A stretch of 46,559 nucleotides of DNA. It comes from Verrucomicrobiota bacterium (GTDB lineage Bacteria > Verrucomicrobiota > Verrucomicrobiia > Chthoniobacterales > JAFAMB01). Below are positions 1 through 31,697 of this stretch, in pieces. The notes under the pieces are model-generated. The model searched no databases. It was not told the origin of the DNA and worked only from the letters and a program-made list of their open reading frames with translations. Every line of letters starts with the position of its first letter. Position 1 is the stretch's first letter. The position numbers and the translations under genes are program-made. The stretch is from NCBI GenBank assembly GCA_019243005.1, contig JAFAUY010000332.1:1-46559 (forward strand). The letters run 5' to 3'.

Positions 1-744
1 CAGGATCCCTTGGCGAAAGCGTCTGGCCTTTCCTATCTTCAATCCTGCAAGGCTGAGCAGCAAAAGATCAACAAGCTGAAGCGCGACCTCGAGCAAGCGG
101 CGCGAGATAAAGAGCGTGGGCGGCTTCAAGCAATCGAGAGAGATCTGAAGGACTCGATGGGCCGCCTTGGCGGGTACATGGCGCGGCTGTTTGACTTCCT
201 GCCGGAAAACCAAATAGCCGACTTCCCGGTTAAGCCCGGCCAGTTTGTAACCGTTCCATACAAAGGAACAGAAAGAAAGGGCGAAATCCTGTTCGTCAGT
301 GGCCCACGTGTCTACTATAAGGTGGACGCGATCTCCGGCAAGCTGGACATGCCCACCTCGGAATTTAGAGACAAATGGAAAAGTGGTGAAATTCGAGAAT
401 ATGTGGAAGGCTCGTTACGGGAGAAATACCTGGGTGGCACTCCCGGCAAAGCTTCCAACACGGGAAAAGACGTGATAAAGAGGTATAATGTCCGAACCGT
501 GGGAACCGTGGTAGAAGTAGAATGGAAACCAGGGATGTGGCATCCGTTGGCAGACTGCGACATGAGCCATGAACCAATCGACGCTGTCGATTACTGGAAC
601 AGCACGGGAAGACATACCGGACCGAAGTCAGACGAAGTCAGGAAATGGATGCTGGACCCTGCGAATTACATTCTGGAACCCTCCGCAATCAACCGGAGTC
701 GAGGATCAAGGACAAAAAGCAATTATCTCCCACCCACCGCTTAG
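1..744 (+). CDS. C-terminal part of a larger polymorphic-toxin-like protein ending in a GH-E-like HNH/EndoVII nuclease domain; gene continues past the left window edge
   Basis: The frame of ORF 10..744 has no stop back to base 1. The N part is coiled-coil-like (QQKINKLKRDLEQAARDKERGRLQAIERDLKD). The last ~60 aa, CDMSHEPIDAVDYWNSTGRHTGPKSDEVRKWMLDPANYILEPSAINRSRGS, fit the GH-E nuclease pattern (G/S-H-E ... W ... DP-x-N-Y-x-x-E ... N-R-S). Confidence 0.6.
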   Translation, partial: QDPLAKASGLSYLQSCKAEQQKINKLKRDLEQAARDKERGRLQAIERDLKDSMGRLGGYMARLFDFLPENQIADFPVKPGQFVTVPYKGTERKGEILFVSGPRVYYKVDAISGKLDMPTSEFRDKWKSGEIREYVEGSLREKYLGGTPGKASNTGKDVIKRYNVRTVGTVVEVEWKPGMWHPLADCDMSHEPIDAVDYWNSTGRHTGPKSDEVRKWMLDPANYILEPSAINRSRGSRTKSNYLPPTA

Positions 745-754
745 AGGCAAGCCG

Positions 755-1378
755 ATGCAAGATTATTTTTCCTACTTCAGAGCGCAGTCCCGTTCACAGC
801 CGTCTTGTGAAATTGTTCATCTCGGCCGGCTATACCTGCCGTCCGGGAAAATAATCTGTTCGGATCCTTTTCGAACCTCTGAAGTATCTTTTCTACGGCA
901 AACCGTTCGGGCAGGGAATTACGACGTAAACCTCTGCCTGGTTACGCTTGCAGATTGGGGTAGACGAGTGGCGCTCGCATCATTGACGTTCGAAGATCGA
1001 GAGCCAGCGCAGTGGTTGATCGCGGACTACGTCGTCGGTGGTGAAGTCTTCACCACGTTTCAAGTCGAATCCGGCCTGGCTTGCTTTATGGATCTGCAAA
1101 CCGCCGAACTCTTCGAAATGGTGATTGCTGAATATTACCGGGTTAACGCTGAGGGAAACTATTACGATGATGTTTTAGCTGCGGAGTTTAGCCGGCATGT
1201 ACCTGCAGGTTGGTCACGAAAAAGCGGTGATTGGGATCTGCACCACCCACTCAGGAATGATTCGCGAAACATCGCGATATTCGCGAGTGGCTTAGGTGAT
1301 GGAGCTTACTCGGCGTTTTGGGGTATCACGCGAGATGGCCAACCGGCAATGCTGGTCGTGGATTTCCAGCTGCTGTAA
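755..1378 (+). CDS. DUF4241 family protein, candidate immunity partner of the upstream nuclease toxin
   Basis: ATG at 755 lies 11 nt after the toxin stop, with GAGG just upstream. The 207-aa product carries DUF4241-typical blocks: SGKIICSDPF, FQVESGLACFMD, FASGLGDGAYSAFWGITRDGQPAMLVVDF. The 569 start in the ORF track overlaps the toxin gene and adds non-protein-like sequence. Confidence 0.75.
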   Translation: MQDYFSYFRAQSRSQPSCEIVHLGRLYLPSGKIICSDPFRTSEVSFLRQTVRAGNYDVNLCLVTLADWGRRVALASLTFEDREPAQWLIADYVVGGEVFTTFQVESGLACFMDLQTAELFEMVIAEYYRVNAEGNYYDDVLAAEFSRHVPAGWSRKSGDWDLHHPLRNDSRNIAIFASGLGDGAYSAFWGITRDGQPAMLVVDFQLL

Positions 1379-1523
1379 GCCTCGGGCGGTGTGGCCGGAC
1401 GCCCTTTCTGGATTGTAACTTCAGAGGCGCATCTTAAGGGGGGGTTGACGGCCTTATGTTAGCCGGCCTCATTACCCCCGATCTCACGCATTTTCTAAGA
1501 GGGAAAGCTGCTGGAAGATAAGC

Positions 1524-3551
1524 TTGTATATGGAGCCTGATGCCGTCTACCTCGACTCTCTGCCGCTGATTTCACATACCGTTGGTTACGGCACCCTGGG
1601 TACCGCCGGCCAGCTGGGGTATGAAAATAAAATGGTGTCGGTCCGTGATCACTGCTACGACCACGCCTTCAGTGCGCACCCGCCGGCACGGCTGCGGTTC
1701 CAGCTGGATGGACGTTTTCGAGGCTTTCGCTGCGGCGTCGGGGTCAACGACGACGTGCCATCAGGGCGGTCCCACGCGGATTTTATCGTGCTTGCGGACG
1801 GACGCCAGGTGGCTGCGGCCAACTTTGTCGCAGCGGAGGAGGGGGCACGCGCGCTCTGTGCCGAGATCACCGGTGCACAGGTTTTGGAGTTGGTAACCCA
1901 TACCACCAGATGGGAATACTCACATGCGGTTTGGCTCGATCCCCAGGTTACTGGAATAGCCCCATCCCGGGGCTTGACGACAGGCGTTTTGGTCGACTGT
2001 CTTCAGCGCGCGGAGCTTAGCGTGCCTAGCAAACCGCTAAGCGCTGAGCGGTGTCTCGCGACGGTGGTGTCGCCGGGTTTCACCGAGCTGCTGGATGATA
2101 TGCTTGGATCGTTGTACGCGAATGGCTGTTGCCAGGACGCCTTGGTGGTTATCTTCGCGATCAACCCCGATGAGGCCTGCGCCGCAACGGCGGCGAAGTA
2201 TCGCGCCCAGCTTGTGCATTGTCGAGCACTTCGCGCGGTTAATGCCACGAGCAAAGCGTTACTTTACTCGGCTGCGCTGGCCATCGATTCCCGCCTGTTT
2301 CTCTGTCTCGACGCCGACATGCTCGTGCTGGGTGACCTTCGGCCTGTCTTTGCCGCTCTGGAAGCGTGTCCCGAAGGAGCGATCCTCGCCTGCCGTGAGG
2401 GCAATGGGTGTGGCTGGCACAATTTCACCAATCTCAATCATGCCCTTTGCTCAGTTTACGGAGGGCGGGAGTCTGATTGGTGCAAATTCCGGGGTGTCGC
2501 TGGAGGGGAGGGTACGTATACCCTTGTCGTGAACGACGGCCTATTCGCCGGCAGTCGTGCTGCGTTGCTGGCGTTGGATGGAGTGATCCGCGCTATGAAT
2601 GGAGCACCCGCGTGGATAGACGAGAGGCATGACATCTGGTGGCGCAACCAGTTCGTGTTTAATCTGGCGCTCGCCCGTCTCGGTTGCGGTATGGAGCTGG
2701 ACGGAATTTACAATGTTCAACTCAATTCCCATGACGTTGAATTCTCGGATGAGGACGGGCACTTGCAAGCGATTTGGGGCAATCGGCCAGCGCGACTGGT
2801 GCACTTCAACGGCCTGGGACGAAAAAAATACCCGGAGTGGCGTAACCGGTATGCCTGCATACCAGATCCGATGGTGGAGACGACTGCACGCGGCCATTAC
2901 GAGGATTTTTTGACGGCGTTACGGGCGTGGATTGGCCGATATGGGTTGAAGGCGTTGGCCTGGTCTTTCTGCGGCACATCAGACGCCCACACAGGCAAAG
3001 TGTTTGATCACTCGGGATTTCCACTATTTGCCCTGCTTCATTACGTGATCCGGGCCAACGGTTGCGTGCGAGTCCTGGAGACTGGCACCGCCCGTGGCGT
3101 TTCGGCGGCCTGTTTAGCGTCAGCAGTAGCGCATCGACCCAGCAGTCAGGTGGTTACGTTTGATCCCTTTCCTCACCCTGAACGAATACCGCTTTGGGCG
3201 GCGTTGCCCGCTGCAGTTCGTGCCTGCATCGAGCAACGTAGCGTCGACTCGCTTGAAGGAATGGCCGCAGCGCTTCAGGCCGGAGAGCAATACCAGGGGG
3301 CGTTGCTCGACTCCATCCACACAGAGGAGCATGTGTGGGCGGAGTTCCAGCTTGCGGTGCAACTCGTATGCCGTAGTGGCCTGATTCTCATCCACGATTC
3401 CTGTTATGCTGGTGGAACGGTTGAGAAGGCCCTCCGCCGAATCGAGTCAGCCGGTTACAACGTGTCACGGCTGTGGGCCGCGGAGAGTGGCGTCACAGAA
3501 GATGATCATCTCGGCTTGGCGTTGGTCGTTAACAGTCGAAGAGCGGCGTAG
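1524..3551 (+). CDS. Three-domain fusion: N-terminal NPCBM/NEW2 carbohydrate-binding module, GT8-like nucleotide-sugar glycosyltransferase, and C-terminal class I SAM-dependent methyltransferase
   Basis: NPCBM pattern: YLDSLPLISHTVGYGTLGTAGQLGYENKMVSV...FRCGVGVNDDVPSGRSHADFIVLADGRQV. GT-A DxD block: FLCLDADMLVLGDLRPVF, with VHFNGLGRKKYPEW. Methyltransferase block: VRVLETGTARGVSAACLA ... ALLDSIHTEEHVWAEF ... LILIHD. No signal peptide. TTG at 1524 or ATG at 1530. Confidence 0.8.
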   Translation: MYMEPDAVYLDSLPLISHTVGYGTLGTAGQLGYENKMVSVRDHCYDHAFSAHPPARLRFQLDGRFRGFRCGVGVNDDVPSGRSHADFIVLADGRQVAAANFVAAEEGARALCAEITGAQVLELVTHTTRWEYSHAVWLDPQVTGIAPSRGLTTGVLVDCLQRAELSVPSKPLSAERCLATVVSPGFTELLDDMLGSLYANGCCQDALVVIFAINPDEACAATAAKYRAQLVHCRALRAVNATSKALLYSAALAIDSRLFLCLDADMLVLGDLRPVFAALEACPEGAILACREGNGCGWHNFTNLNHALCSVYGGRESDWCKFRGVAGGEGTYTLVVNDGLFAGSRAALLALDGVIRAMNGAPAWIDERHDIWWRNQFVFNLALARLGCGMELDGIYNVQLNSHDVEFSDEDGHLQAIWGNRPARLVHFNGLGRKKYPEWRNRYACIPDPMVETTARGHYEDFLTALRAWIGRYGLKALAWSFCGTSDAHTGKVFDHSGFPLFALLHYVIRANGCVRVLETGTARGVSAACLASAVAHRPSSQVVTFDPFPHPERIPLWAALPAAVRACIEQRSVDSLEGMAAALQAGEQYQGALLDSIHTEEHVWAEFQLAVQLVCRSGLILIHDSCYAGGTVEKALRRIESAGYNVSRLWAAESGVTEDDHLGLALVVNSRRAA

Positions 3552-3562
3552 GACGTAGGATC

Positions 3563-5878
3563 ATGAAAGTCTGCATCGGCATCCATGTGCATGCCGAGCC
3601 GGAGCGACTCCTGGCCACGCTCGCCTCAGTACGGGCCAATACGAGCGGCCAATTTCAGCTTGTGCTGTTGCCCGATGGCCCGGACGCGGCCACTGCGGCT
3701 GCTCTGGCTGAATTAGGCGACCTCCCTCAATTGGCCACGGCCGAGCCCCGTGGCAGTGCCGCGTGTTTCAACCGCCTCGCACAGTTCGACGATGCCGGTG
3801 TCGTTGTGTTATTGGAGAGTGGTGCGTTGGTTGGACCGCACTGGCTCGATCATCTGCTGGCCGCACTCCAGACCGACCCGCGCAACGGTCTGGTTGGGCC
3901 ATCCACCAACCGTTCCTGGAACGAGCAGGCAATTTTCTCCTCGTCCGAACCCATTCCGGACGATGTGGGCCGCGCCACCGCGGAAGCGGTGCACCGTACC
4001 GGGAGCGGGGTGCGGACCTTGGGACCGCTTTACAGCCTCGCTGATTTCTGTTACGGTGTGCGGCGCGAGGTGATTGAAGCGATCGGTCTCGCCGATGAGG
4101 GTTACGGCCTGGGACCGTGTTGGGAAATGGACTACAACATCCGTGCCGCCCGGGCCGGTTGGTGCGGGGTGTGGGCCTGCGCGGCCTACGTTCACCGCGC
4201 GCCGTTCACTGCCCGCCAGCGACGGGATGAGGCCCGGTTCTTTGAAGCGAGCAAACGGCGCTACCAGGACAAGTTCTGCGGTGCCCGGCTGCGCGGCGAA
4301 AAGTCCGACTACCGTACCCACTGCCGGGGCGACGCCTGCCCGAACTTTGCCCCAGCCAGGTTGATCCGGATTCGCCACACGGATCCGCCTTCTCTCCTGT
4401 TGACATCGGCTTGCGGGGGAAATGCGGAGTCTGCTAACGTTCGGATCGCAACCGCAGAGCAACCGTTAGTGAGTTGCATCATGCCGACGTGCAACCGGCT
4501 CCGGTTTGTGCCGGAAGCGGTACGCTGTTTCCTGAGACAGGATTATCCGAATCTGGAACTCGTGATCGTGGACGACGGCACCGAGTCCGTCGAGCCCATG
4601 CTGCCAGGCGATCCGCGCCTGCGGCTCATCCGGCTGGCAGGCAAGGAGAATGTCGGCGCCAAGCGTAACCTTGCCTGCGGATCGGCGAACGGCGAGTTTG
4701 TCGTCCATTGGGACGACGACGATTGGTACCCGGCCGACCGCGTCCGGCGGCAGGTCGCTGCGCTGAGTGCCGGCCGAACGGAAATCTGCGGTACCAGCAC
4801 GTTATTCTACCATGATGCCACGTCCGGGCGGGCCTGGCGTTACCGGTACTTGAACGGCAGGCACCCTTGGGTGGCAGGCAATACGCTCGCCTATCGTAAG
4901 TCCTGGTGGACCAGGCATCCGTTCCCGGAAATCCAGGTAGGCGAAGATGCCCGGTTCATCTCGACTGCACCGCGAGAGGCGGTCTGCGATCTCCTTGCGC
5001 CGGACTTGTGCGTCGCACGCATCCACAGCGGCAACACCGGCTGCAAGGTAACCAGCGGTTACTACTGGCAGGAGTGTCCGGGCAGCGAACTACAGGCGCT
5101 CTTGGGCGAAGATTGGCCTCGATTCCTTAAGGCAGAACTGCCGGCCATGGCTGCACCGGCGACACCCATGGTCTCCTGCATCATGCCGACGTTTAATCGC
5201 CGGGCTTTTCTTCGTCTGGCACTGGAATCGTTCAGCCAGCAGGATTACCCGGCAAAAGAGTTGATCGTCGTCGACGACGGCACCGACGTTGTGCAAGACG
5301 TCTTCGACGGCATGCCGGGGGTGGTTTATGTGCGCCTGCCGGCTCGGAGCTCGATCGGCGAAAAACGTAATCGTGCCTGTGCCGTCGCCCGAGGCGCAAT
5401 CATCGCCCACTGGGACGATGACGACTGGTATGCGCCGTACCGTTTACGCCATCAGATTGCCCCGCTGTTGTCGGGCCAGGCTGATCTCACAGGTTTGGAG
5501 AACTCATGCCTGGTTGACCTTTCGACCGGCCGCTTCTGGCGCACCCGCGCCGATCTGCACCGGCGGATGTTCATGGGGGATGTCCATGGCGGTACACTCG
5601 TCTATTGGAAGCGGTTGGTCTCGGACGGCCTGCGCTATCCGCCCCTTAGCCTCGCCGAGGACGCCGCGTTTATTCTTGCCGCCCTTCGCACCGGCAAACG
5701 TCTCCTGCGCCTGGCCAATGACGGAGTCTTCGTTTACGTGCGGCACGGCAATAATGCGTGGCGGTTTCAACCGGGACAATTCCTCGACCCGGGCGGGTGG
5801 GACATGATCCAGGCCCCACCCGCATTTCCTACCGAACGACTCACCGCCTACCGGGAGGCGGCCGCCGGTTCTGCCTGA
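3563..5878 (+). CDS. Glycosyltransferase with three GT2 (GT-A) modules in one polypeptide
   Basis: Module 1: MKVCIGIHVHAEPERLLATLASVRANT...LLPDGPD. Module 2: VSCIMPTCNRLRFVPEAVRCFLRQDYPNLELVIVDDGT ... HWDDDDWYPADR. Module 3: VSCIMPTFNRRAFLRLALESFSQQDYPAKELIVVDDGT ... HWDDDDWYAPYR. Starts 11 nt after the previous stop. Confidence 0.85.
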   Translation: MKVCIGIHVHAEPERLLATLASVRANTSGQFQLVLLPDGPDAATAAALAELGDLPQLATAEPRGSAACFNRLAQFDDAGVVVLLESGALVGPHWLDHLLAALQTDPRNGLVGPSTNRSWNEQAIFSSSEPIPDDVGRATAEAVHRTGSGVRTLGPLYSLADFCYGVRREVIEAIGLADEGYGLGPCWEMDYNIRAARAGWCGVWACAAYVHRAPFTARQRRDEARFFEASKRRYQDKFCGARLRGEKSDYRTHCRGDACPNFAPARLIRIRHTDPPSLLLTSACGGNAESANVRIATAEQPLVSCIMPTCNRLRFVPEAVRCFLRQDYPNLELVIVDDGTESVEPMLPGDPRLRLIRLAGKENVGAKRNLACGSANGEFVVHWDDDDWYPADRVRRQVAALSAGRTEICGTSTLFYHDATSGRAWRYRYLNGRHPWVAGNTLAYRKSWWTRHPFPEIQVGEDARFISTAPREAVCDLLAPDLCVARIHSGNTGCKVTSGYYWQECPGSELQALLGEDWPRFLKAELPAMAAPATPMVSCIMPTFNRRAFLRLALESFSQQDYPAKELIVVDDGTDVVQDVFDGMPGVVYVRLPARSSIGEKRNRACAVARGAIIAHWDDDDWYAPYRLRHQIAPLLSGQADLTGLENSCLVDLSTGRFWRTRADLHRRMFMGDVHGGTLVYWKRLVSDGLRYPPLSLAEDAAFILAALRTGKRLLRLANDGVFVYVRHGNNAWRFQPGQFLDPGGWDMIQAPPAFPTERLTAYREAAAGSA

Positions 5879-5927
5879 ACTAATTACGTCTTTTCGGACA
5901 AATCCGTTGTGGCTGGTGAGGTGTAGC

Positions 5928-18033: not shown

Positions 18034-19434
18034 TCACACCGCTTCGCCGCCCACGTACGTACGGATCGCCCTTGCCAGGGCTCCCCTGAAGACCAGTTTG
18101 GAGAGCACAAGTTCGGCGTCGGTGCGCTCGGTCAACGGTTCCTCGAAGGCGTCTACGCGGTCGACATCCCATACCACCAGGTCGGCTTCAAATCCCGGTG
18201 CGATCTGGCCGAGTTTCCGTTCCGGCCAAAGAATTTCGGCGCCGCCCACCGTCGCGACCCGGAAAAGGTCTGCCAGGCTCGGTTCCGACCCGGTGCCGGT
18301 TAAGACCACGCGCAACTTGTGGCTGTAGCTGGCCCCCTTCATTACTTGCCAAGGATTCAGTTCCGGTCCGGCCCCCACGTCGCTTCCCAGTCCGATCGCA
18401 ACGCCTTCCGATCGCATCCGGCTCCAATCCATTACGCCGCTCCGGAGAAACAGATTTGCAGTCGGACAGTGAGCGACTTTGGTACCCGTTTCCCTTAAGG
18501 CCGCGTACTCACGATCGGAAAGGTAGATGGCGTGGCCTACGATGGTCTGCGGCCCCAGTAACCCGTGTTGTTCGTAAACGTGCGTGTAATCGATCGCTTT
18601 GGGAAATGATTTGCGCACGGCCACAAGTTCCGCCGGGTTTTCGGCCAGATGCGTTTGGATGAACGCCCCCGTCGCGCGTGCCAATTCTCCGGTGGCGCGC
18701 ATCAGTTCCGACGAACAGGTCAGCGCAAACCGCGGGCTGAAAGCGTACCGGATCCGGCCGCGCGCCGCGCCATGCCAGCGGCGGCAAAGGCGCTCGCCTT
18801 CCTCCAGCACACGCCGGGTCAGCGCCCGGGAATCCCGGGCGAGGTAGGAATTTACGTCCATCATCATCTGTCCCATCGCGATCCGTAACTTGCTCCGGCG
18901 CGCCGCCTGGAAACAAACTTCGGTACTCTCCGGGCAAGCCGTCACGTAAACCGCCGCCGAGGTGATCCCGTTGCGTTTGAGTTCTGCGAAAAACCGGGAT
19001 GCCTCCCGGGTGGCGCGCTCCGGCGTGAAATGTTTTTCGAGAGGAAAAATGTAGCGCTGCAACCACGGCAAGAGCTCAAGCCCGCCCTGAGCCACCGCCG
19101 GGTATTGCGGAAGGTGGCAGTGCACATCGACAAAACCAGGGGTGATCAGGCGCGAACGCCAATCTTCCCAGCTGATCGTCCGGGCGCGCGGCCTTTCCTG
19201 CCAGGAACCTGCGTAGGTGATGAGGCCGGAGCCATCCCAGACGATCGCGCCATCCTGATGCGCCGTGACTTTGCCGGGCCGCGGCGAATTCAGGAGGTAG
19301 CCGCGTAGGCCGCGCCGGGGCGCGCTGCTGCCCGGTTCGGAGCCGTCCGTCGATTTGGATAGCGGCTTCCGACTCGTTCGGTCAGCCGGTACAAAGTTCA
19401 AATTCCGGGTCAGCGCCATATGGTTTGCCATCAT
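18034..19434 (-). CDS. guaD: Guanine deaminase-like amidohydrolase
   Basis: LITPGFVDVHCHLPQYPAVAQGGLELLPWLQRYIFPLEKHF ... IQTHLAENPAE ... VGHAIYLSD ... VAHCPTANLFL ... GLGSDVGAG are metal-dependent amidohydrolase/guanine deaminase blocks. The first ~158 aa of the 624-aa ORF are Arg/Ser-rich and overlap uraD, so the start is set at the ATG pair 19434/19431 (19419 also possible). Confidence 0.85.
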   Translation of the reverse strand: MMANHMALTRNLNFVPADRTSRKPLSKSTDGSEPGSSAPRRGLRGYLLNSPRPGKVTAHQDGAIVWDGSGLITYAGSWQERPRARTISWEDWRSRLITPGFVDVHCHLPQYPAVAQGGLELLPWLQRYIFPLEKHFTPERATREASRFFAELKRNGITSAAVYVTACPESTEVCFQAARRSKLRIAMGQMMMDVNSYLARDSRALTRRVLEEGERLCRRWHGAARGRIRYAFSPRFALTCSSELMRATGELARATGAFIQTHLAENPAELVAVRKSFPKAIDYTHVYEQHGLLGPQTIVGHAIYLSDREYAALRETGTKVAHCPTANLFLRSGVMDWSRMRSEGVAIGLGSDVGAGPELNPWQVMKGASYSHKLRVVLTGTGSEPSLADLFRVATVGGAEILWPERKLGQIAPGFEADLVVWDVDRVDAFEEPLTERTDAELVLSKLVFRGALARAIRTYVGGEAV

Positions 19435-19609
19435 GCTCTCGATGGCGAACGATCCTATAGCAGGTCTGGTGCCGGTTGGGAAATCCTGGCCTGGAGGAGA
19501 AAACGGGCACGGAACACAACCTGGCGCTGATGCTCGCGCGAAAATTTTTCTGGCTGATGAGGGACTCTCCATGACCGGCAACGCAGGAAATTTGATCTGA
19601 TTGGATCCC

Positions 19610-20152
19610 ATGATTGCTCTCGAGGATCTTAACCCGCTGGACCGTGCTTCGTTTGTATCGGCGTTGGACGGCATTTTTGAGCATTCACCGTGGATCGCGG
19701 AGCAGGCCTGGGAACGGCGCCCGTTTGCGGATCTGCGCCAGTTGCACCAGACACTGGTAGAGGTGGTGCAAGCATCTTCAGAGGAGGACAAGCTGCGCCT
19801 GATTCGCGCCCATCCCGATCTCGTGGGTGCGGCGGCGCGTGCCGGCACCCTGACCAGGGAATCGACCGCCGAACAGGCGCGTATCGATGATTTAACGCCT
19901 GAGGACATCGCCCGTTTTGAGCGTGATAACGCGCGCTATTGGGAGCGGTTTGGGTTTCCCTTCGTGATCTGCGTCCGCGAAAATAAAAAGCAGGCGATCC
20001 TTGCCGGTTTTACGTCCCGTTTGCGGCATGACCCTGCCACCGAGCAGCGCAACGCGCTGGACGAGATTTCCAAGATCGCCTGGTACCGGCTTAAAGATCG
20101 TATCTGCGAACCACCTACGCACCCCGCGGACATGGACTACCGACATGGCTGA
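19610..20152 (+). CDS. uraD: OHCU decarboxylase (2-oxo-4-hydroxy-4-carboxy-5-ureidoimidazoline decarboxylase)
   Basis: FVSALDGIFEHSPWIAEQAWERRPFADLRQLHQTLVEVV...EDKLRLIRAHPDLVG ... FERDNARYWERFGFPFVICVRENKK is the canonical OHCU decarboxylase pattern. Confidence 0.9.
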   Translation: MIALEDLNPLDRASFVSALDGIFEHSPWIAEQAWERRPFADLRQLHQTLVEVVQASSEEDKLRLIRAHPDLVGAAARAGTLTRESTAEQARIDDLTPEDIARFERDNARYWERFGFPFVICVRENKKQAILAGFTSRLRHDPATEQRNALDEISKIAWYRLKDRICEPPTHPADMDYRHG

Positions 20153-20471
20153 ACTCACCACTCACGTGCTCGATATCCTGCGCGGCGTTCCCGCCGCCGG
20201 AATGAGGATCGATCTGGTAAGGGATGATCAAATCACCCGAACCTTTTGGACCAATGCAAACGGGCGTACCGATACCCCTTTGCTCACGAAGGACGAATTT
20301 CGGGCCGGGAGGTATCAGTTGATCTTTTACGTCGGTGACTACTTCCAGATAGAGGGAACTCCTTTTCTGGATCGGGTGCCGATCTGGTTCGGCGTAGCGG
20401 ATTCCACGCAGCACTACCACGTGCCTTTGGTCGTCTCGCCCTGGGCCTACCAAACCTACCGCGGCAGCTGA
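20145..20471 (+). CDS. uraH: 5-hydroxyisourate hydrolase (transthyretin-like)
   Basis: MAELTTHVLDILRGVPAAGMRIDL ... YHVPLVVSPWAYQTYRGS carries the characteristic YRGS C-terminus. Its ATG overlaps the uraD stop (atggctga). Confidence 0.9.
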   Translation: MAELTTHVLDILRGVPAAGMRIDLVRDDQITRTFWTNANGRTDTPLLTKDEFRAGRYQLIFYVGDYFQIEGTPFLDRVPIWFGVADSTQHYHVPLVVSPWAYQTYRGS

Positions 20472-20519
20472 GATAAAATGCTGGTCGCAAACCGCCGGAG
20501 CACGCAAACCAGAGGAGCG

Positions 20520-21389
20520 ATGAACGGAATTGAAATCATTTCTCAACGGTACGGAAAAAGACGCGTTCGTGTTTTGCGCGTCGTACGCGGGGCGGACAGC
20601 ACGCACACGGTCCATGAAGTCGAGGTCGCAGCCCTGTTGGATGGCGATTTTTCCGGCGCTTACCTCTCGGGTGACAACGGCCAGGTCGTGCCCACCGATA
20701 CCATTAAGAATACCATCCAGGTGCTGGCCCAAAAACACCTCGGCGCGGAGATCGAGGAGTTCGCGTTGACGTTAAGTGATCATTTCCTCAGCCGTTACAC
20801 GCAGGTGAGCCGGGTGTACGTCGAAATCTCGTCCCGTCCGTGGACCCGGTACACCCGCGCGGATGGAACGCCGCACCCGCACGTTTTCCTGGGAGGCGCC
20901 AAGCCAACGCCGTTTTCATGCGTGGAAATGACCCGCACGGGCGTGCAGGTGGTGTCCGGTGTCCGGGATTTACTCATCCTCAAGTCGACCGCATCCGCGT
21001 TCAAGGGCTACCCAAAATGCGAGTACACAACCTTACCGGAAACCGACGATCGCATCCTGTCTACACAGGTAGAGGGTAGTTGGACCTTTTTGGGGCGTGA
21101 CGTGAACTTCGCAAAAGCCAACGCCGCGATCGTTTCGGCAATGTTGGAGACCTTCGCGGAAACGTTCAGCCCGTCCGTACAGAACACCCTTTACCTCATG
21201 GCGGGCGCTGCGTTGCAAGCCGCCCCCGAGGTCACTGACATCTATCTCGCGCTGCCAAACAAGCACTACCTATCCGTCGATTTCACACCGTTCAGCCAGG
21301 AAAACCACAAGGAAATTTTTCTGCCGACCGATGAACCGCATGGCCAGATTGAGGCTCGCGTGAGCCGCTCCGCACCAAAGCGAGAGTAA
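20520..21389 (+). CDS. uox: Urate oxidase (cofactor-independent uricase)
   Basis: RYGKRRVRVLRVVR...HTVHEVEVAALLDGDF...SGDNGQVVPTDTIKNTI ... LILKSTASAFKGY. AGAGGAG lies upstream of the ATG at 20520. Confidence 0.9.
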   Translation: MNGIEIISQRYGKRRVRVLRVVRGADSTHTVHEVEVAALLDGDFSGAYLSGDNGQVVPTDTIKNTIQVLAQKHLGAEIEEFALTLSDHFLSRYTQVSRVYVEISSRPWTRYTRADGTPHPHVFLGGAKPTPFSCVEMTRTGVQVVSGVRDLLILKSTASAFKGYPKCEYTTLPETDDRILSTQVEGSWTFLGRDVNFAKANAAIVSAMLETFAETFSPSVQNTLYLMAGAALQAAPEVTDIYLALPNKHYLSVDFTPFSQENHKEIFLPTDEPHGQIEARVSRSAPKRE

Positions 21390-21539
21390 GCACCCTGTAG
21401 ATCAGGCCTCCGGCTGCGGGAAACGCGTGCGGAAACGCACCGGACCGGCGGCATGATCGCGGCCACCGCGTCGAAATCGACCGACGTCTCAAGACTTGAA
21501 GTCGGCAACAAACAAACCAACTTTTAGTGCCATTGACCA

Positions 21540-22298
21540 ATGAGGCAAGCTTCAACCCACGGCATTCGTATCAAGCTGATTAATCCGAACACGACGTTGA
21601 GCATGACCCGGAACATGACGGCATGCGCTGAGCGCATCGCCGGTTCCCGAACCGAGATCATCGGGGTTAGCCCGGACATGGGGCCGCCTTCGATTGAAGG
21701 GTACTACGACGAAGCGCTGGCGACGCCTGGACTGCTGGCTGAGGTGATTAAAGGCGAACGCGCCGGTTGCGATGGGTACGTAATCGCCTGTTTCGGTGAT
21801 CCCGGCCTGCAGGCCGCGCGCGAACTCGCGCGCGGTCCGGTCGTCGGCATTGCGGAGGCCGCGATGCACGTTGCCAGCTTCATTGCGCCGTCGTTCAGCG
21901 TCGTCACGACCCTGGGACGCACCTGCGGGATGGCGTGGCATTTGGCCGAACGCTACGGTCTGAAGCGCTTTTGCCGCAACGTGCGCGCCGTGGAAATCGC
22001 CGTCCTTGAACTGGAAGACCCCTCATCGGACGCACGCCGCCGCATCATTGAAGAATGCCAGCGGGCGCTCGACGAAGATGGGTCAACCGCCATCGTTCTC
22101 GGCTGTGCCGGCATGGTTGACCTCAGCTACGCCATCAGTGAAAAAATCAACGCACCGGTGGTGGAAGGCGTGACGGCGGCCGTGAAGCTGGTTGAAGCGT
22201 TGGTTACCCTCGGGCTGGTCACGGCCAAACGAGGGGAGTACGCCCTTCCCTTGCCGAAAACCTACGGCGGATTGCTATCGGGCTTCAGCCCGGTGTAG
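21540..22298 (+). CDS. hpxA: Asp/Glu/hydantoin racemase family protein, likely allantoin racemase
   Basis: IRIKLINPNTTLSMT ... GYVIACFGDPGLQAARE ... VVGIAEAAMH ... AIVLGCAGM. The allantoin substrate is inferred from its position between uricase and allantoinase genes. Confidence 0.75.
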   Translation: MRQASTHGIRIKLINPNTTLSMTRNMTACAERIAGSRTEIIGVSPDMGPPSIEGYYDEALATPGLLAEVIKGERAGCDGYVIACFGDPGLQAARELARGPVVGIAEAAMHVASFIAPSFSVVTTLGRTCGMAWHLAERYGLKRFCRNVRAVEIAVLELEDPSSDARRRIIEECQRALDEDGSTAIVLGCAGMVDLSYAISEKINAPVVEGVTAAVKLVEALVTLGLVTAKRGEYALPLPKTYGGLLSGFSPV

Positions 22299-22345
22299 GT
22301 TGGTTTCCTTCGAGCGGGCAAGGATGGGCCTCCCGGTGCGAGCAG

Positions 22346-23284
22346 ATGCCTTCTCAAAATAACTATCCGCGGGATTTGATCGGGTACGGCCGGAAGCAGG
22401 TATTTGCCGACTGGCCGGCGCAGGCACGGGTGGCCGTGCAGTTTGTTCTTAACTATGAGGAAGGCGGCGAAAACTGCGTGCTGCACGGCGATCCGGCTTC
22501 GGAGCGATTTCTCTCGGAGATCGTGGGTGCCGAGGCTTACCCGGCTCGCCACCTGAGCATGGAATCGATCTACGAATACGGATCGCGTGCGGGGGTCTGG
22601 CGAATTCTCCGGGAATTCGAAACGCGCCGGTTGCCGTTGACCATCTTCGGCGTGTCGATGGCGCTGGAGCGTAACCCGGAGGTCACCAACGCTTTCGTCG
22701 AACTTGGTCACGAAATTGCGTGTCACGGCTGGCGTTGGATTCATTACCAGAACGTCGATGAGGGCACCGAACGCGAACACATGCGCATCGGCATTGAGAT
22801 CATCGAGCGGCTCACGGGCGCTGCCCCCCTGGGCTGGTACACCGGGCGGGACAGCCCGAATACGCGGCGTCTCCTGGTCGAACGGGGCGGCTTCCTGTAC
22901 GACTCGGATTACTACGGGGATGACCTTCCCTTCTGGATGCAGGTCGAAGTGGGCCAGGGCGACTTCAGGCCGCACCTCGTGGTGCCTTACACGCTGGACG
23001 CCAATGACATGCGCTTTGCCACCCCGCAAGGTTTCAATACGGGAGACCATTTTTTCGCCTATCTGCGGGACGCGTTTGACGTCTTGTACGAGGAAGGTTC
23101 CGAAACCCCCAAGATGATGTCGATCGGCATGCATTGCCGGTTGCTCGGCCGTCCGGGGCGATTTCGCGGGCTCCAGCGTTTCCTGGATCATATCGAAAAA
23201 CATGACCGGGTATGGGTAGCGCGCCGCGTCGATATCGCCAGGCACTGGTGCCAGCGGCACCCCTACAAGGTCGCCCACGCATAA
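22346..23284 (+). CDS. puuE: Allantoinase PuuE (polysaccharide-deacetylase fold)
   Basis: YPRDLIGYGRKQVFADWPAQARVAVQFVLNYEEGGENCVLHGDPASERFLSE ... GHEIACHGWRWIHY ... MSIGMHCRLLGRPGR. Confidence 0.9.
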   Translation: MPSQNNYPRDLIGYGRKQVFADWPAQARVAVQFVLNYEEGGENCVLHGDPASERFLSEIVGAEAYPARHLSMESIYEYGSRAGVWRILREFETRRLPLTIFGVSMALERNPEVTNAFVELGHEIACHGWRWIHYQNVDEGTEREHMRIGIEIIERLTGAAPLGWYTGRDSPNTRRLLVERGGFLYDSDYYGDDLPFWMQVEVGQGDFRPHLVVPYTLDANDMRFATPQGFNTGDHFFAYLRDAFDVLYEEGSETPKMMSIGMHCRLLGRPGRFRGLQRFLDHIEKHDRVWVARRVDIARHWCQRHPYKVAHA

Positions 23285-23340
23285 GGGCCGTTGCGCGACG
23301 AGCGAACTAATGGAGAATGGTCGAGTAGCTTCCCATTCTC

Positions 23341-24399
23341 ATGATGATCCCATCGCCTGACCCGAACGCGCCCGAGTTTACACGCCGTTGCGTTAACCTC
23401 GCCGACCCGCGGTTGGGCGCCTGTGCGGTCGTGGCCAGCGACGAGTTCTTTGCCCCCAAAGACCGGATGCTGAATCCTGATCCACCCATCTTTATTCCGG
23501 GCAAGTACGACGATCACGGCAAATGGATGGATGGCTGGGAGACTCGGCGCAGACGAGAGCCGGGACACGATTGGTGCATCATCAAGCTCGCGCGGCCGGG
23601 AGCCATCCAGGGGGTTGAACTCGACACGACCCATTTCACCGGAAACTACCCGCCTGCCGCCTCAATCGATGCGTGCCGCCTGGATGACGGCGACCCCGAC
23701 GCGACGACCGAATGGGTGGAAGTGGTTTCCCCGACGACGTTGCAAGGTAACCGCCATCACTACGTGGAGGTCGACTCCAGCCGTGCGTTCTCGCACGTGC
23801 GGGTTAACCTTTACCCGGATGGCGGGCTCGCCCGGCTGCGCGTGTACGGTCAGCCGCGGGCCAGTTGGCACGGGGCCGGGGAAAACGTGCTGGCCGACCT
23901 GGCCGCCATGGTTAATGGCGCTTACGTCGTGGCCGCCAACGACCAGCATTTTGGGCTTGCCTCGTCTTTGTTATTGCCCGGCCGCGGAGTTAACATGGGC
24001 GACGGCTGGGAAACACGTCGCCGCCGCGAACCGGGTAACGACTGGTGCATCATCGCCTTGGCGCGCCCGGGAGTTATCCACGGAGTTGAGGTGGACACAG
24101 CCCACTTCAAAGGTAACTACCCTGACCGTTGCTCTCTGCAGGCGGCGACCGTAACGGCAGGGACTGACCGTTCGATCGTCACGCAAGCGATGTTCTGGCC
24201 GGTATTATTGCCCGAGCTGAAGTTGCAGATGGACCGGCAGCACCATTTTGAAGCCGAAGTCGTGCCGCTCGGGGTCGTGACTCACGTGCGTTTCAATATT
24301 TTTCCCGACGGAGGCGTGTCACGGCTGAGACTCTGGGGGCTGGTCGAGTCAACGAACGATCCCCAGCTCAAGCCATGGGCTTCTTCCCTTGCTCTGTGA
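23341..24399 (+). CDS. alc: Allantoicase (two tandem allantoicase repeats)
   Basis: Repeat 1: [46 protein letters not shown]. Repeat 2: [46 protein letters not shown]. Confidence 0.9.
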
Positions 24400-24905
24400 A
24401 GGTGCTGACGGTCAGACTCCTGACGCGCGAAGCGTTCGCCCCGTTCGGCGACGTGATCGACCTCGACGGTGCGCAGCATTTTCCCATCAACGAAGGAACC
24501 ACGGAACGCTACCATGACCTTGCCAACGTCGACGTGTGCGACCAAGGGGGCCGGCCGTTGATCAACGTTTTTCGTGGCCGGCCGCGCCGATTACCCTTTG
24601 AGGTAAAGATGGTGGAGCGGCATCCCCTCGGCAGCCAGGCATTTATTCCCTTGGACCAACGGCCGTATGCGGTGATCGTTGCACAAGGAGCTGAACCCCA
24701 CCCGGACGGGCTGAGGGCGTTCATCACGCGGGGATGGCAGGGCGTCAATTACGCAAAAGGCGTCTGGCACCACCCGCTCATCGCGCTGGAAGCCGTAAGC
24801 GATTTTGTGGTGGTGGATCGGGGTGGGGAAGGGCACAATTTGCAAGAACAGGTTTTGTCACAACCGGTGTGGCTGACTCAGGAAGCGTTATCCGCAGCCC
24901 AATGA
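24396..24905 (+). CDS. allA: Ureidoglycolate lyase
   Basis: [15 protein letters not shown]...[19 protein letters not shown]...FRGRP...[14 protein letters not shown]. The GTG start at 24396 overlaps the alc stop (gtga); the track's ATG at 24375 is an alternative. Confidence 0.88.
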
Positions 24906-24942
24906 TAAAGCGTGATCTGAATCGAAACCGGATTCTCCTGCC

Positions 24943-25839
24943 GTGAGCACCAATCACCTTCCGGATAACGATACCCCGGCCGGGCCCAACGGTCCGCAAT
25001 GGATCGAAGAGTTGCGCCTTGCGGTCGGCCGAGGCGAGCCTTGCGCTCTGGCCACCGTGGCAACCACCAAAGGATCCGTCCCGCGCCGGCCCGGTGCCAA
25101 GATGATCGTGGTCGCCGGCGGCTCGGCCCGCGGGACGATCGGTGGAGGAAAATTTGAAGCGCTCGTCATCGAGGATTGCCTGGCCGCGCTGGAAACGGGA
25201 AAAGTGCAACTCAAATCCTACACGTTGCGAGAAGGCACCCCCGAGTCGTTCGGCGCCATCTGCGGCGGCGAGGTAACCGTCCTGATCGAACCGTTCCTGC
25301 CGGCTGCCACGCTGTATTTGTTTGGCGCCGGACATTGCAGTCAGGCACTCGCCCCGCTCGCTCGTGCGTGTGGTTTCAAGGTGGTCGTGCTGGAGGACCG
25401 GGCCGAATACCTCAAAGCCTTTTCACCAGCCGGTGCCCAGGTGCTTACGCAGCCGGTCCGGGATTTTCTGGACGGGCAGAGTTTTCGGCCTTCAGACGCG
25501 GTGGTCCTGGTAAACCGGAACTACCTCATGGACCAGGAAACGTTGCACGCGCTGCTGACTCACCCCGTGGCCGGCGTTCAATTGGGCTACATCGGGATGA
25601 TCGGCAGCGAGCGCAAAGTGGCGCGCGTGTACGACGAACTTCTCAAACGAGGCGTTCCGGCTGAAACGCTCCGGCGGGTGCACGCACCCATCGGGTTGGA
25701 CATCGGTGCGGACTCACCGGCGGAAATCGCGGTCAGCGTCCTGGGTGAGATCCTGGCGGTGTTACGCGGGCGGCCGGGTGGCCCCCTGGCAAGCCAGCGG
25801 CAGCTACCGCCATCGACGACGCGCAACGACCGGCCCTGA
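24943..25839 (+). CDS. xdhC: XdhC-family xanthine dehydrogenase maturation (Moco insertion) protein
   Basis: ALATVATTKGSVPRRPGAKMIVVAGGSARGTIGGGKFEALV ... LYLFGAGHCSQALAPLARACGFKVVVLEDR ... GMIGSERKV ... APIGLDIGADSPAEIAVSVLGEILAV. GTG start. Confidence 0.85.
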   Translation: MSTNHLPDNDTPAGPNGPQWIEELRLAVGRGEPCALATVATTKGSVPRRPGAKMIVVAGGSARGTIGGGKFEALVIEDCLAALETGKVQLKSYTLREGTPESFGAICGGEVTVLIEPFLPAATLYLFGAGHCSQALAPLARACGFKVVVLEDRAEYLKAFSPAGAQVLTQPVRDFLDGQSFRPSDAVVLVNRNYLMDQETLHALLTHPVAGVQLGYIGMIGSERKVARVYDELLKRGVPAETLRRVHAPIGLDIGADSPAEIAVSVLGEILAVLRGRPGGPLASQRQLPPSTTRNDRP

Positions 25840-25899
25840 ATTTTTCGAACGGGACCGTAAGGCCCCGGCCTTCAGGGCTAGGCGTTACCCGCGGCTGGT

Positions 25900-30950: not shown

Positions 30951-31697
30951 ATGAATGCCGTCTATATCCTCTGGCTGCGACAGTTGAAGCGATACACCCG
31001 TTCCAGAGCCCGCGTTACCGCATCCCTGGCGCAACCATTGCTTTTTCTGTTCGCCCTCGGGTTCGGGCTGGGACCAACTTTTCAAAAAGCTGGGCACGGT
31101 AATTATATCCAGTTCATCTCCCCCGGCGTCATCGGGATGACCGTTTTATTCAATTCCATGTTCTCCGGGATTGAGTTGATTTGGGATCGGCAATTCGGCT
31201 TTCTTAAAGAGACGCTCGTCGCCCCGGTGTCACGTCTCTCCATCATGATTGGACGCACGCTGGGCGGGGCCACCACCGCCCTGATTCAGGGTGTGATCAT
31301 CATGGGAGTCTGCACCGTGGCCGGCTTTCGAGTCCAAAACCTGAGTCTATTGCCGGTCGCGTTCTTGTTCATGGCACTGATTGCCACAACCTTTACGGCG
31401 CTCGGAACCGGGATCGCCTCCCTTCTAACTGATTTTCAGGGTTTTCAGCTGGTCATGAATCTGGTTGTCATGCCCGCTTTTTTCTTATCGGGTGCACTAT
31501 TTCCGCTGGGTGAGGCACCGGCGCCGATTCAGTTCATCGCCAGCTTCGATCCGCTCTCCTTCGGCGTAGACGGATTGCGAACGGCCTTGATCGGCGTGGC
31601 GCATTTTGGGATTCCGACCGATCTGGGCGTGCTTGCGACGTTTACCACGTTATTTCTTGGCTTCGGCGGTTATCTCTTCTCAAGAATTCAGCTCTAA
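30951..31697 (+). CDS. ABC-2 type transporter permease
   Basis: Six predicted hydrophobic spans. YILWLRQLKRYTRSRARVTASLAQPLLFLFALGFG and LVAPVSRLSIMIGRTLGG are typical of ABC-2 permeases. It directly follows the ATPase gene. Confidence 0.85.
   Translation: MNAVYILWLRQLKRYTRSRARVTASLAQPLLFLFALGFGLGPTFQKAGHGNYIQFISPGVIGMTVLFNSMFSGIELIWDRQFGFLKETLVAPVSRLSIMIGRTLGGATTALIQGVIIMGVCTVAGFRVQNLSLLPVAFLFMALIATTFTALGTGIASLLTDFQGFQLVMNLVVMPAFFLSGALFPLGEAPAPIQFIASFDPLSFGVDGLRTALIGVAHFGIPTDLGVLATFTTLFLGFGGYLFSRIQL

Follow-up and report, generated by a model that had tools for sequence, protein, structure and literature searches.

The DNA analysed here, referred to as the window, is an entire 46,559-bp contig (database row P0241) of a Verrucomicrobiota bacterium, and at its left edge the assembly breaks off within a toxin-like gene. 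Roughly 1.5 kb from that edge begin three large genes, G1, G2 and G3, which lie on the plus strand and at the positions given by an earlier sequence-only reading of the contig, as the list of open reading frames (ORFs) bears out. Eleven nucleotides separate G1 from G2, and 49 nt separate G2 from G3 when the ATG at 5928 is taken as the start of the latter. G1 and G2 bring together glycosyltransferase (GT) and methyltransferase (MT) domains, and G3 carries the DUF4157 domain found in cargo proteins of extracellular contractile injection systems (eCIS). By following the G2 family through related genomes, we found that nearly all G2 genes reside in eCIS loci, while only a minority of eCIS loci carry the GT/MT module. 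The coordinates of the genes, their domains and the neighbouring features are collected in Table 1.

Table 1. Genes, domains and other features of the cluster in the window, with genes preceding related operons (L-numbers denote loci of relatives)
Feature	Position	Strand	Basis and remarks
G1	1530-3551 (ATG; alternative TTG 1524)	+	ORF list; soluble three-domain protein, CBM51/NPCBM + GT8-like GT-A + O-methyltransferase
G1 NPCBM/CBM51 domain	1545-1949	+	Pfam NPCBM E 1.8e-18
G1 GT-A domain, GT8-like	2022-2879	+	Fold only; invariant DxD (D261-A-D263) and H425
G1 class I, cation-dependent-type S-adenosylmethionine (SAM) O-methyltransferase domain	3012-3539	+	Methyltransf_24 E 3.5e-12, CmcI E 3.6e-5
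G2	3563-5878	+	ORF list; soluble triple-GT2 enzyme, conserved anchor of the module
G2 GT2 domain 1 (divergent)	3575-4084	+	Glycos_transf_2 E 1.6e-6, fragment scanned alone
G2 conserved Cys/His cluster C239, H253, C254, C259 (aa 239-264, between domains 1 and 2)	4277-4354	+	Invariant in a 15-sequence alignment
G2 GT2 domain 2, DDDD motif	4472-4867	+	Pfam best stretch aa 304-435; PDB matches to chondroitin and heparosan synthases
G2 GT2 domain 3, DDDD motif	5168-5554	+	Glyco_tranf_2_3 aa 536-664; PDB match to PglI 9jma, E 3e-11
G3	5928-8333 (ATG; alternative TTG 5907)	+	Mosaic DUF4157 (eCIS_core) protein, cargo- or effector-like
G3 N-terminal leader	5928-6287	+	G/A/P-rich, net charge +11 (first 120 aa), mostly low-confidence/disordered in AlphaFold2 (AF2) model
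G3 DUF4157/eCIS_core zincin-like domain, HELVH	6333-6566	+	E203 and H206 invariant; H202 nearly invariant
G3 middle alpha/beta module	6591-7157	+	E263, D289 and E302-I-K304 invariant in 21/21 homologues; confident AF2 fold
G3 Ala/Gln-rich long helix, apolipoprotein-like repeats	7158-7418	+	Sequence; AF2 helix 411-479
G3 C-terminal helical-bundle module	7455-8327	+	AF2; 52-65% identity with eight shorter DUF4157 proteins
Truncated protein, C-terminal 247 aa	1-744	+	Frame open from base 1; cut by contig edge
DUF4241 protein	755-1378 (most likely extent)	+	Pfam DUF4241 E 2.1e-31
Hairpin directly 3' of the G3 stop	8333-8393	+	Minimum free energy -27.2 kcal/mol, z -1.98; no T-run
Lgt / outer-membrane beta-barrel domain genes upstream of F5-AAA-DUF4157 operons	L018:4540-5445, L048:472-1566; L042:1-1137, L063:322-2703, L084:2-1306		

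Domain architecture of G1, G2 and G3

G2 had been described as a triple-GT2 enzyme, and this architecture was confirmed by three Glycos_transf_2 stretches in Pfam (E 5.6e-51). Across 15 sequences the mean column identity is 65%, and the DDDD motifs of domains 2 and 3 are invariant. The conserved Cys/His cluster between the first two domains is a possible zinc-binding linker. The matches of G2 in the PDB and NCBIfam (PglI, WcaA, TuaG, and chondroitin and heparosan synthases) are those of generic GT2 enzymes, with the NCBIfam scores far under the curated cut-offs; the PHROG glycosyltransferase families match weakly and are likewise sub-threshold.

The lectin-like module and the SAM methyltransferase previously recognised in G1 were both recovered by Pfam, as NPCBM and as Methyltransf_24/CmcI. 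The CBM51 domain has PDB profile matches to ZmpB and to the CBM51 of GH95, with a Foldseek match to 2vmi at a template modelling (TM) score of 0.83, and the methyltransferase domain has PDB profile matches to SafC and catechol O-methyltransferase (COMT)-like enzymes, with a Foldseek TM score of ~0.6. The GT8 assignment of the domain between them fared differently. The middle ~300 aa of G1 gave no Pfam match even at E 10, Glyco_transf_8 included, and no PDB match by single sequence or by a 20-sequence profile, and a Pfam domain covers this region in 0 of the 120 homologues. In an AlphaFold model of G1 built from 48 sequences, with a predicted local distance difference test (pLDDT) score of 89.8, the GT-A domain is matched by Foldseek in the PDB to GlyE (5gvv/5gvw, the best), LARGE1 (7ui6) and XXYLT1 (4wm0) at E ~1e-8, and 'Glycosyl transferase family 8' models in a viral structure library match it as well. 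Because these structural matches, together with the invariant DxD, come with no Pfam or PDB sequence match, the domain is, on the evidence of the model, a GT8 at the level of fold and not by membership of the sequence family. The top structural matches to G1 in the viral library are fused GT-A and methyltransferase proteins of tailed phages and giant viruses, and a 638-aa viral protein, M1IF74, is among the matches. GlyE, which acts on the adhesin PsrP, is a soluble GT8 enzyme that extends a protein O-glycan before export, and XXYLT1 and LARGE1 also elongate protein O-glycans.

In sequence analysis none of G1, G2 and G3 has a hydrophobic segment that fits a membrane span or a signal peptide. 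G1 and G2 start straight with folded domains and have no disordered leader. NCBIfam and PHROGs returned nothing for G1 or G3.

That the third gene encodes a DUF4157 protein was established by a Pfam match to eCIS_core (formerly DUF4157; E 1e-33) containing an HELVH motif. In the database G3 is called from 6084; alignments with homologues begin at residues 7-41 of the protein read from 5928, which favours the earlier start. Its AlphaFold model (pLDDT 75) displays a disordered N-terminus, with pLDDT < 50 at residues 1-42, 64-75 and 113-119, followed by confident DUF4157 and alpha/beta domains and a C-terminal helical bundle. The invariant E263, D289 and E302-I-K304 of the middle module lie, in this model, on a helix and two consecutive strands; since a helix and two strands bearing E...D...ExK constitute the PD-(D/E)xK signature, we predict by motif that the module is probably a nuclease of this type. 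The same module gave no significant match in Pfam, the PDB or Foldseek, and for the G3 model overall Foldseek listed only non-significant helical-bundle matches (best E 0.075). A pore-forming protein of the ClyA/SmhA kind was considered and rejected as unsupported (Foldseek probability <= 0.1).

G3 is a mosaic. Residues ~40-220, covering leader and DUF4157, are common to all of its homologue matches, residues ~220-420 to ~20 of them, and residues ~510-800 to eight shorter DUF4157 proteins (P0242-P0247, P0249 and P0263), one of which sits in an array of four eCIS_core genes beside a WHD/AAA gene. Regions labelled 'Apolipoprotein (weak)', similar to the long helix of G3, also occur in the cargo of relatives. 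DUF4157 is the strongest marker of eCIS-associated toxins (EATs) and is a core and cargo domain of these systems (PMC8213781, PMC11297309; also PMC8894135), so that its use in the sequence-only reading as a marker of contractile-injection cargo agrees with published eCIS work (PMC8213781, PMC8894135). Cgo1 and Cgo2 of AlgoCIS, which are located in the tube lumen, combine a disordered N-terminal domain with a central DUF4157 (PMC8894135), and published eCIS cargo, including Cgo1, Cgo2 and EATs, resembles G3 in its disordered N-terminus and its central DUF4157 with HExxH, and may do so in its variable C-terminus (PMC8894135, PMC8213781, PMC11297309). A disordered basic leader, an HExxH domain and a nuclease-like module with an invariant D...ExK give G3 the look of a typical eCIS cargo.

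Linkage of the G2 family to eCIS loci

To place the cluster among its relatives, we surveyed G2 in one genome per GTDB species, a search that returned 179 relatives, of which the best 80 loci were kept. ORFs in these loci were called mechanically in six frames as the longest non-overlapping set, iterative profiles were built and the neighbours were clustered. Identities range from 46 to 100% among the best 120 matches, and the family is conserved at 45-77% identity across at least six phyla. Most loci come from Acidobacteriota, with others from Verrucomicrobiota, Chloroflexota, Actinomycetota, Myxococcota and one alphaproteobacterium, and every G2 locus found belongs to a metagenome-assembled genome of an uncultured lineage.

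Markers of eCIS lie upstream of G2 and on the same strand in 47 of the 54 species-level loci that have at least 6 kb of upstream sequence, with G2 as the last gene of the operon, as against only 2 of the 55 loci with at least 6 kb downstream. Because the marker profiles derive from the fetched loci themselves and may overlook divergent markers, 47/54 is a lower bound. Even at a chance rate of 10-20%, a null rate that we assumed, the binomial probability of this linkage is P < 1e-25. The upstream same-strand markers among the 54 loci are DUF4157 (25 loci, within 10 kb), AAA (20), DUF6519 (13) and Baseplate_J or its neighbour (13), and Pfam confirms the markers as Baseplate_J, DUF6519, AAA, eCIS_core, Pvc16_N and WHD+AAA. 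DUF6519 is the recently defined baseplate-anchoring domain of eCIS tail fibres (PMC12923769).

Two versions of the operon recur. Version A runs, 5' to 3', from a ~650-aa protein of unfamiliar type (F5) through an AAA ATPase, one or two DUF4157 proteins of 1000-1400 aa and one or more small variable genes to the GT/MT gene or genes and G2; version B comprises Baseplate_J, a ~720-aa protein, a DUF6519 protein, the GT/MT gene or genes and G2. What G2 tracks is the eCIS locus rather than DUF4157 itself: in 13 loci the GT/MT module comes directly 3' of genes for the baseplate and the DUF6519 tail fibre, and DUF4157 is missing upstream.

The closest relatives on long contigs, L087 and L088 (70-71% identity), display the canonical 3' end of an eCIS locus. 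The order in L087 is DUF6519, two unannotated genes, Pvc16_N, WHD+AAA, a 70-aa gene, GT2, an FkbM methyltransferase, G2, three short genes and two eCIS_core genes. In L088 it is DUF6519, a 229-aa gene, Pvc16_N, WHD+AAA, a 52-aa gene, an NPCBM protein, three minus-strand genes (two of them GT34), G2, eCIS_core, a 66-aa gene and a second eCIS_core. Pvc16 and AAA genes thus stand just upstream of the GT/MT module in both, as they do in L085, and the DUF4157 genes follow G2 in the same order as in the window. Other close relatives have DUF4157 toxins and small genes upstream of G1 and G2, matching the truncated toxin and the DUF4241 gene of the window.

G1-like genes are adjacent to G2 in ~25 loci, often with a 4-nt overlap, and their spacing in 11 related loci is -4 to 17 nt, a range that includes the 11 nt of the window. 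The complete trio of a G1-like gene, G2 and DUF4157 was found in at least 11 GTDB species. The sequence-only reading had left a choice between coupling and chance adjacency and had proposed synteny of the trio in other genomes as a check; the trio is syntenic elsewhere, and the comparison favours coupling over chance for the adjacency of G2 and DUF4157 in the window. The part of that reading that gave way is DUF4157 as the linked unit, a place taken by the whole eCIS locus. From the synteny in relatives we infer that the window cluster is the 3' end of an eCIS locus whose structural genes lie beyond the contig end. Exact-sequence look-ups with G2 and G1, aimed at extending the contig leftward, found no match.

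A scan of positions 1-10000 for promoters and terminators gave counts no higher than in shuffled sequence, with no site between G1, G2 and G3, and the intergenic folds at 1375-1535 and 5870-5935 are unremarkable; co-transcription of the three genes is neither supported nor contradicted by these scans. The hairpin directly after G3 is weak evidence for a possible operon-end terminator.

While G2 is constant, its partners vary. G1 is present in ~25 loci, split forms of it occur (NPCBM with GT, or GT with MT), and elsewhere the partner is a GT2 protein with methyltransferases of the FkbM, CmcI or Methyltransf_24 type; wherever the partner genes could be annotated, a methyltransferase is among them. 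Such variation around a fixed G2 agrees with a core glycan that is conserved and decorations that vary but are always methylated. A reverse survey, in which a metagenome scan was seeded on the L087-type AAA ATPase, yielded 80 eCIS loci, with Pvc16 in 66, DUF4157 in 47, G2 in one and G1 in none. A module present in 1 of 80 such loci must be dispensable for eCIS function. The one G2 homologue, in L095, lies upstream of Pvc16. In that locus and in L090, L123, L140 and others of this set, Baseplate_J lies downstream of Pvc16-AAA, and of DUF4157 where present, a placement that differs from the Afp/PVC canon.

The F5 family of version A (L008:267-2402 and 16 other loci) consists of 600-700-aa proteins with a long acidic, Pro-rich middle that always precede the AAA ATPase, and it had no Pfam or NCBIfam match. 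It is absent from the 80 eCIS loci seeded on the other AAA clade, in which Pvc16_N takes that position. Iterative searches run both ways found no connection between F5 and Pvc16, of which it had been considered a divergent form; F5 may be a replacement, or else a cap protein that has diverged very far. Genes for Lgt or outer-membrane beta-barrel proteins lie directly upstream of F5-AAA-DUF4157 operons, on the same strand, in several genomes. In two loci that are unrelated to each other (L003:18868-22277 and L085:13435-19031), defence-like genes encoding TIR/SEFIR and nSTAND NTPase proteins lie downstream of G2 at a distance of a few kb.

Upstream of G1, the window holds what had been called a toxin/immunity pair, a description that survives in part. 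The DUF4241 assignment is solid (E 2e-31). The toxin is a fragment whose GH-E nuclease match is sub-threshold (Pfam E 0.14), so that ORF 1-744 is a putative polymorphic-toxin C-terminus, HNH/GH-E-like; the matching slot in relatives holds the C-terminus of a DUF4157 toxin. Small variable genes occupy the DUF4241 slot of relatives, between toxin and GT genes, and they include SUKH-1/SMI1_KNR4, a classical immunity family, which supports by position a putative role for the DUF4241 protein in immunity to the upstream toxin. A literature search on DUF4241 found no papers. In L008 the place taken elsewhere by SUKH-1, DUF4241 or further small genes, between the DUF4157 toxin and the GT/MT genes, is filled by a 307-aa WD40 beta-propeller protein (L008:7712-8635), which could be an unusual immunity protein.

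Past G3, ~1.6 kb (8334-9900) is mostly non-coding. It includes a truncated IS200-like Y1 transposase fragment, broken across frames and clearest at 9425-9700 on the plus strand (Pfam Y1_Tnp E 3e-5, partial profile), and, on the minus strand at 8796-9212, a gene for a small DUF1360-like membrane protein (138 aa, Pfam E 9e-5). The latter protein is 70% identical to the product of a plus-strand gene directly 3' of G2 in L001/L002; in the window the gene is inverted and G3 lies between it and G2, an arrangement that points to local rearrangement or to G3 having been inserted. The remainder of the window is ordinary chromosome, with a GH18 chitinase, a sedolisin, a purine-catabolism cluster, transporters and dehydrogenases. 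A CBM48 ORF (12546-13223) and an alpha-amylase/isoamylase ORF (13054-14562), both on the plus strand, overlap in different frames, as if a frameshift, due to a sequencing error or marking a pseudogene, had split a single GlgX/isoamylase-type gene. The purine-catabolism cluster (18034-29787) encodes an amidohydrolase, uricase, an Asp/Glu-type racemase, a polysaccharide-deacetylase-like protein (possibly a PuuE-type allantoinase), allantoicase, ureidoglycolate lyase and XdhC, with a single 1295-aa fused xanthine dehydrogenase on the opposite strand.

Proposed function of the GT/MT module

Particles of eCIS are assembled and loaded with cargo in the cytoplasm and are released by lysis (PMC8213781). 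We give an even chance to the GT/MT module acting in the cytoplasm to build a methyl-capped glycan on a component of the eCIS, or on its cargo, before the particles are released. G1 and G2 would then form a conserved, soluble glycan-building module, in which the three GT2 domains of G2, of the inverting type, would assemble a short conserved core glycan; G1 would bind this product through its CBM51, add a sugar with its retaining GT8-like domain and finally cap the glycan by O-methylation. The most likely acceptor would be a particle protein (fibre, sheath or tube) or the cargo, modified in the cytoplasm where the particles assemble ahead of lysis. G3 would serve as the cargo or effector, with its disordered basic leader for loading, its DUF4157 domain, a probable PD-(D/E)xK nuclease module and a helical C-terminal module, and the upstream partial toxin and DUF4241 gene would be another cargo/immunity cassette.

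This proposal builds on what the sequences show: the domains present, no signals for export, and operons that repeatedly join the module to eCIS genes. Protein glycosylation in the cytoplasm is suggested because at least four GT domains and at least one O-methyltransferase, all soluble, are embedded in particle operons with no export, priming or polymerase genes. We also count in its favour that the fold neighbours of the G1 GT-A domain elongate protein O-glycans, and that viruses offer precedents, in the fused GT-A and methyltransferase proteins matched by G1 and in the capsid glycosylation of PBCV-1 described below. Whereas the effector or a target had been named as the carrier of the glycan, the particle itself is at least as likely. 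The acceptor, the sugars, the sequence in which the enzymes act and a nuclease function for G3 are predictions at this stage.

Several observations weigh against the proposal. No eCIS structural gene (sheath, tube, spike, gp25 or Baseplate_J) was found in the 46.5-kb window, and a Pvc16/Afp16-type terminator and a Pvc15/Afp15-type AAA ATPase are absent from it as well; the feature of an eCIS locus that it does contain is the 3'-end DUF4157 gene, G3. Since the contig ends where it does, the link of the window to an eCIS depends on synteny in relatives, and the glycan itself is a prediction, as is its acceptor. In 5-7 of the 54 G2 loci there is no eCIS marker within 10 kb, and the module is rare among eCIS loci, as the AAA-seeded survey shows. 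NPCBM/CBM51 domains are usually extracellular, and the best GT2 sequence matches of G2 act on lipid-linked or polysaccharide acceptors, not on proteins.

The last point leads to a different product, a lipid-linked or cell-surface glycan made by an O-antigen- or exopolysaccharide-type assembly with a methyl cap, co-regulated with the eCIS and exported by transporters encoded elsewhere; such a glycan could mask the producer's own receptor or alter its envelope before particle release. The resemblance of the GT2 domains to PglI, WcaA, TuaG and polysaccharide synthases, all under curated cut-offs, speaks for it, as do the annotation of G2 homologues at source as 'O-antigen biosynthesis protein' and the Lgt and outer-membrane beta-barrel genes that precede several type-A operons. 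It also has a precedent in WbdA/WbdD, a pair from ABC-transporter-dependent O-polysaccharide synthesis in which a multi-domain GT works with a SAM methyltransferase that caps the glycan; multi-GT synthesis ended by a methyltransferase is the logic of G1 and G2 too, and a carbohydrate-binding module that reads the product is a further likeness. Unlike that system, the loci here have no Wzm/Wzt, kinase, coiled-coil ruler, initiating enzyme or envelope-gene context. We nevertheless regard a surface glycan as unlikely, because no conserved transporter, flippase, initiating phosphoglycosyl transferase or polymerase gene was found in the ~90 loci examined, all of the enzymes are free of membrane segments, and the place of G2 is within eCIS operons, flanked by ATPase or fibre genes on one side and cargo genes on the other, not in envelope-biogenesis clusters. 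The earlier observation that flippase, polymerase and sugar-nucleotide genes are missing holds for the whole Pfam-annotated window; no Wzm/Wzt transporter or initiating enzyme lies within 10 kb in the window or in related loci, and an ABC-2 permease of the window (30951-31697) is 25 kb off.

Another possibility is that G1, G2 or both are themselves injected as glycosylating toxins, in the manner of the GT domain of the Afp18-related toxin of Yersinia ruckeri, a known glycosyltransferase effector of an eCIS (PMC10598620, citing Jank 2015). The two genes do stand at the 3' end of eCIS operons, the usual site of effectors (PMC8213781). Against this, G2 is 45-77% identical across phyla, unlike polymorphic effectors, both proteins begin with folded domains where G3 has a disordered leader, and neither carries DUF4157; three GT2 domains and the methyltransferases point to stepwise assembly of a glycan and not to the single-sugar chemistry of a toxin. 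Injection of G1 or G2 is, in our view, very improbable. The notion that the GT/MT genes and the DUF4157 gene are unrelated neighbours in a variable region can appeal to the lack of eCIS structural genes in the window, to the transposase fragment and non-coding DNA after G3, and to the few G2 loci without eCIS markers. It is strongly disfavoured, to the point of being scarcely credible, by the markers that share the strand of G2 in 47 of 54 loci from at least six phyla, where 4-nt overlaps occur and gene order is conserved, by the asymmetry of 47 loci with upstream markers to 2 with downstream ones, and by a taxonomic spread that argues against an artefact of one clonal lineage. The probability that is left over goes to functions other than those considered here.

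Comparison with known systems and significance

The relatives of the cluster share with described eCIS loci (Afp, PVC and AlgoCIS) the Baseplate_J, DUF6519 fibre, Pvc16_N and Pvc15-like AAA genes in canonical order; unlike them, those relatives carry a dedicated module predicted to build a glycan, which no described eCIS locus is known to have, and the window itself is without structural genes. Among the entries retrieved from a published Pfam enrichment for eCIS, Glycos_transf_2 is depleted (odds ratio 0.28), Methyltransf_24 is not significant, and NPCBM is enriched only as a two-phylum 'cloud' domain, its retrieved entries being Parabacteroides proteins.

One parallel is viral. The chlorovirus PBCV-1 has a capsid protein that is glycosylated in the cytoplasm before lysis by enzymes including A064R (GT-GT-MT) and A111/114R (GT-GT-GT), and A064R methylates the terminal rhamnose (PMC7826918). 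Like G1 and G2, these form a soluble pair of three-domain proteins, one capping by methylation and one a triple GT, and they act on a structural protein of a particle released by lysis. The likeness is an analogy of logic and architecture. No PDB sequence match links G1 or G2 to A064R-type chains, and the matches in the viral library are to generic GT-A and MT folds; A064R has a first GT domain where G1 has CBM51, and the hosts and particles are unrelated.

In the phages Che8 and Corndog, capsid and tail tube bear O-glycans. In the virion glycosylation attributed to mycobacteriophage GTs, as here, a phage-derived structure encodes its own GTs, thought to decorate structural proteins; the phage GTs are single-domain enzymes, whereas the present ones are large fusions that accompany a tail-like injection device with no capsid. 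Capsid glycosylation has also been suggested for a phage with two putative GTs (PMC11256854). The O-glycosylation of serine-rich repeat adhesins supplies, in GlyE, the best fold match of the G1 GT domain, a likeness in fold only; that system has a serine-rich repeat protein, a GtfA/B pair and an accessory Sec, none of which is present here.

The sequence-only reading knew of no system coupling a GT/methyltransferase machine to a DUF4157 effector, and our literature searches (eCIS with glycosyltransferase, methyltransferase, glycosylation or Acidobacteria) likewise found no description of a GT/MT module in eCIS loci. DUF4157 cargo and eCIS loci are already known; what appears to be new is a conserved GT/MT accessory module within such loci, with a predicted function. 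The module was likely missed by surveys of eCIS-associated domains in cultured genomes because it occurs almost entirely in uncultured soil lineages, all of the G2 loci found coming from metagenome-assembled genomes. In its boldest form, our reading is that a clade of eCIS from soil bacteria that are uncultured (Acidobacteriota, Verrucomicrobiota, Chloroflexota and others) uses a cytoplasmic GT/MT module of its own to glycosylate its particles or its toxin cargo, and we rate the chance that this is so at somewhat below even. It predicts hexose-type mass ladders with +14 Da methyl increments on particle proteins or cargo, dependent on G1 and G2.

If true, a contractile injection machine would for the first time be seen to have a dedicated protein-glycosylation system, and the methyl-capped glycan might adjust how targets are recognised or how stable the particles are. 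A more radical possibility is that the glycan keeps DUF4157 toxins masked inside the producer until delivery, which would explain why many such toxins, G3 included, have no immunity gene. eCIS particles are under development as programmable protein-delivery devices, and their target recognition and cargo loading are poorly understood; post-translational glycosylation would add a new layer to eCIS biology and would offer parts for engineering, such as glyco-decorated particles.

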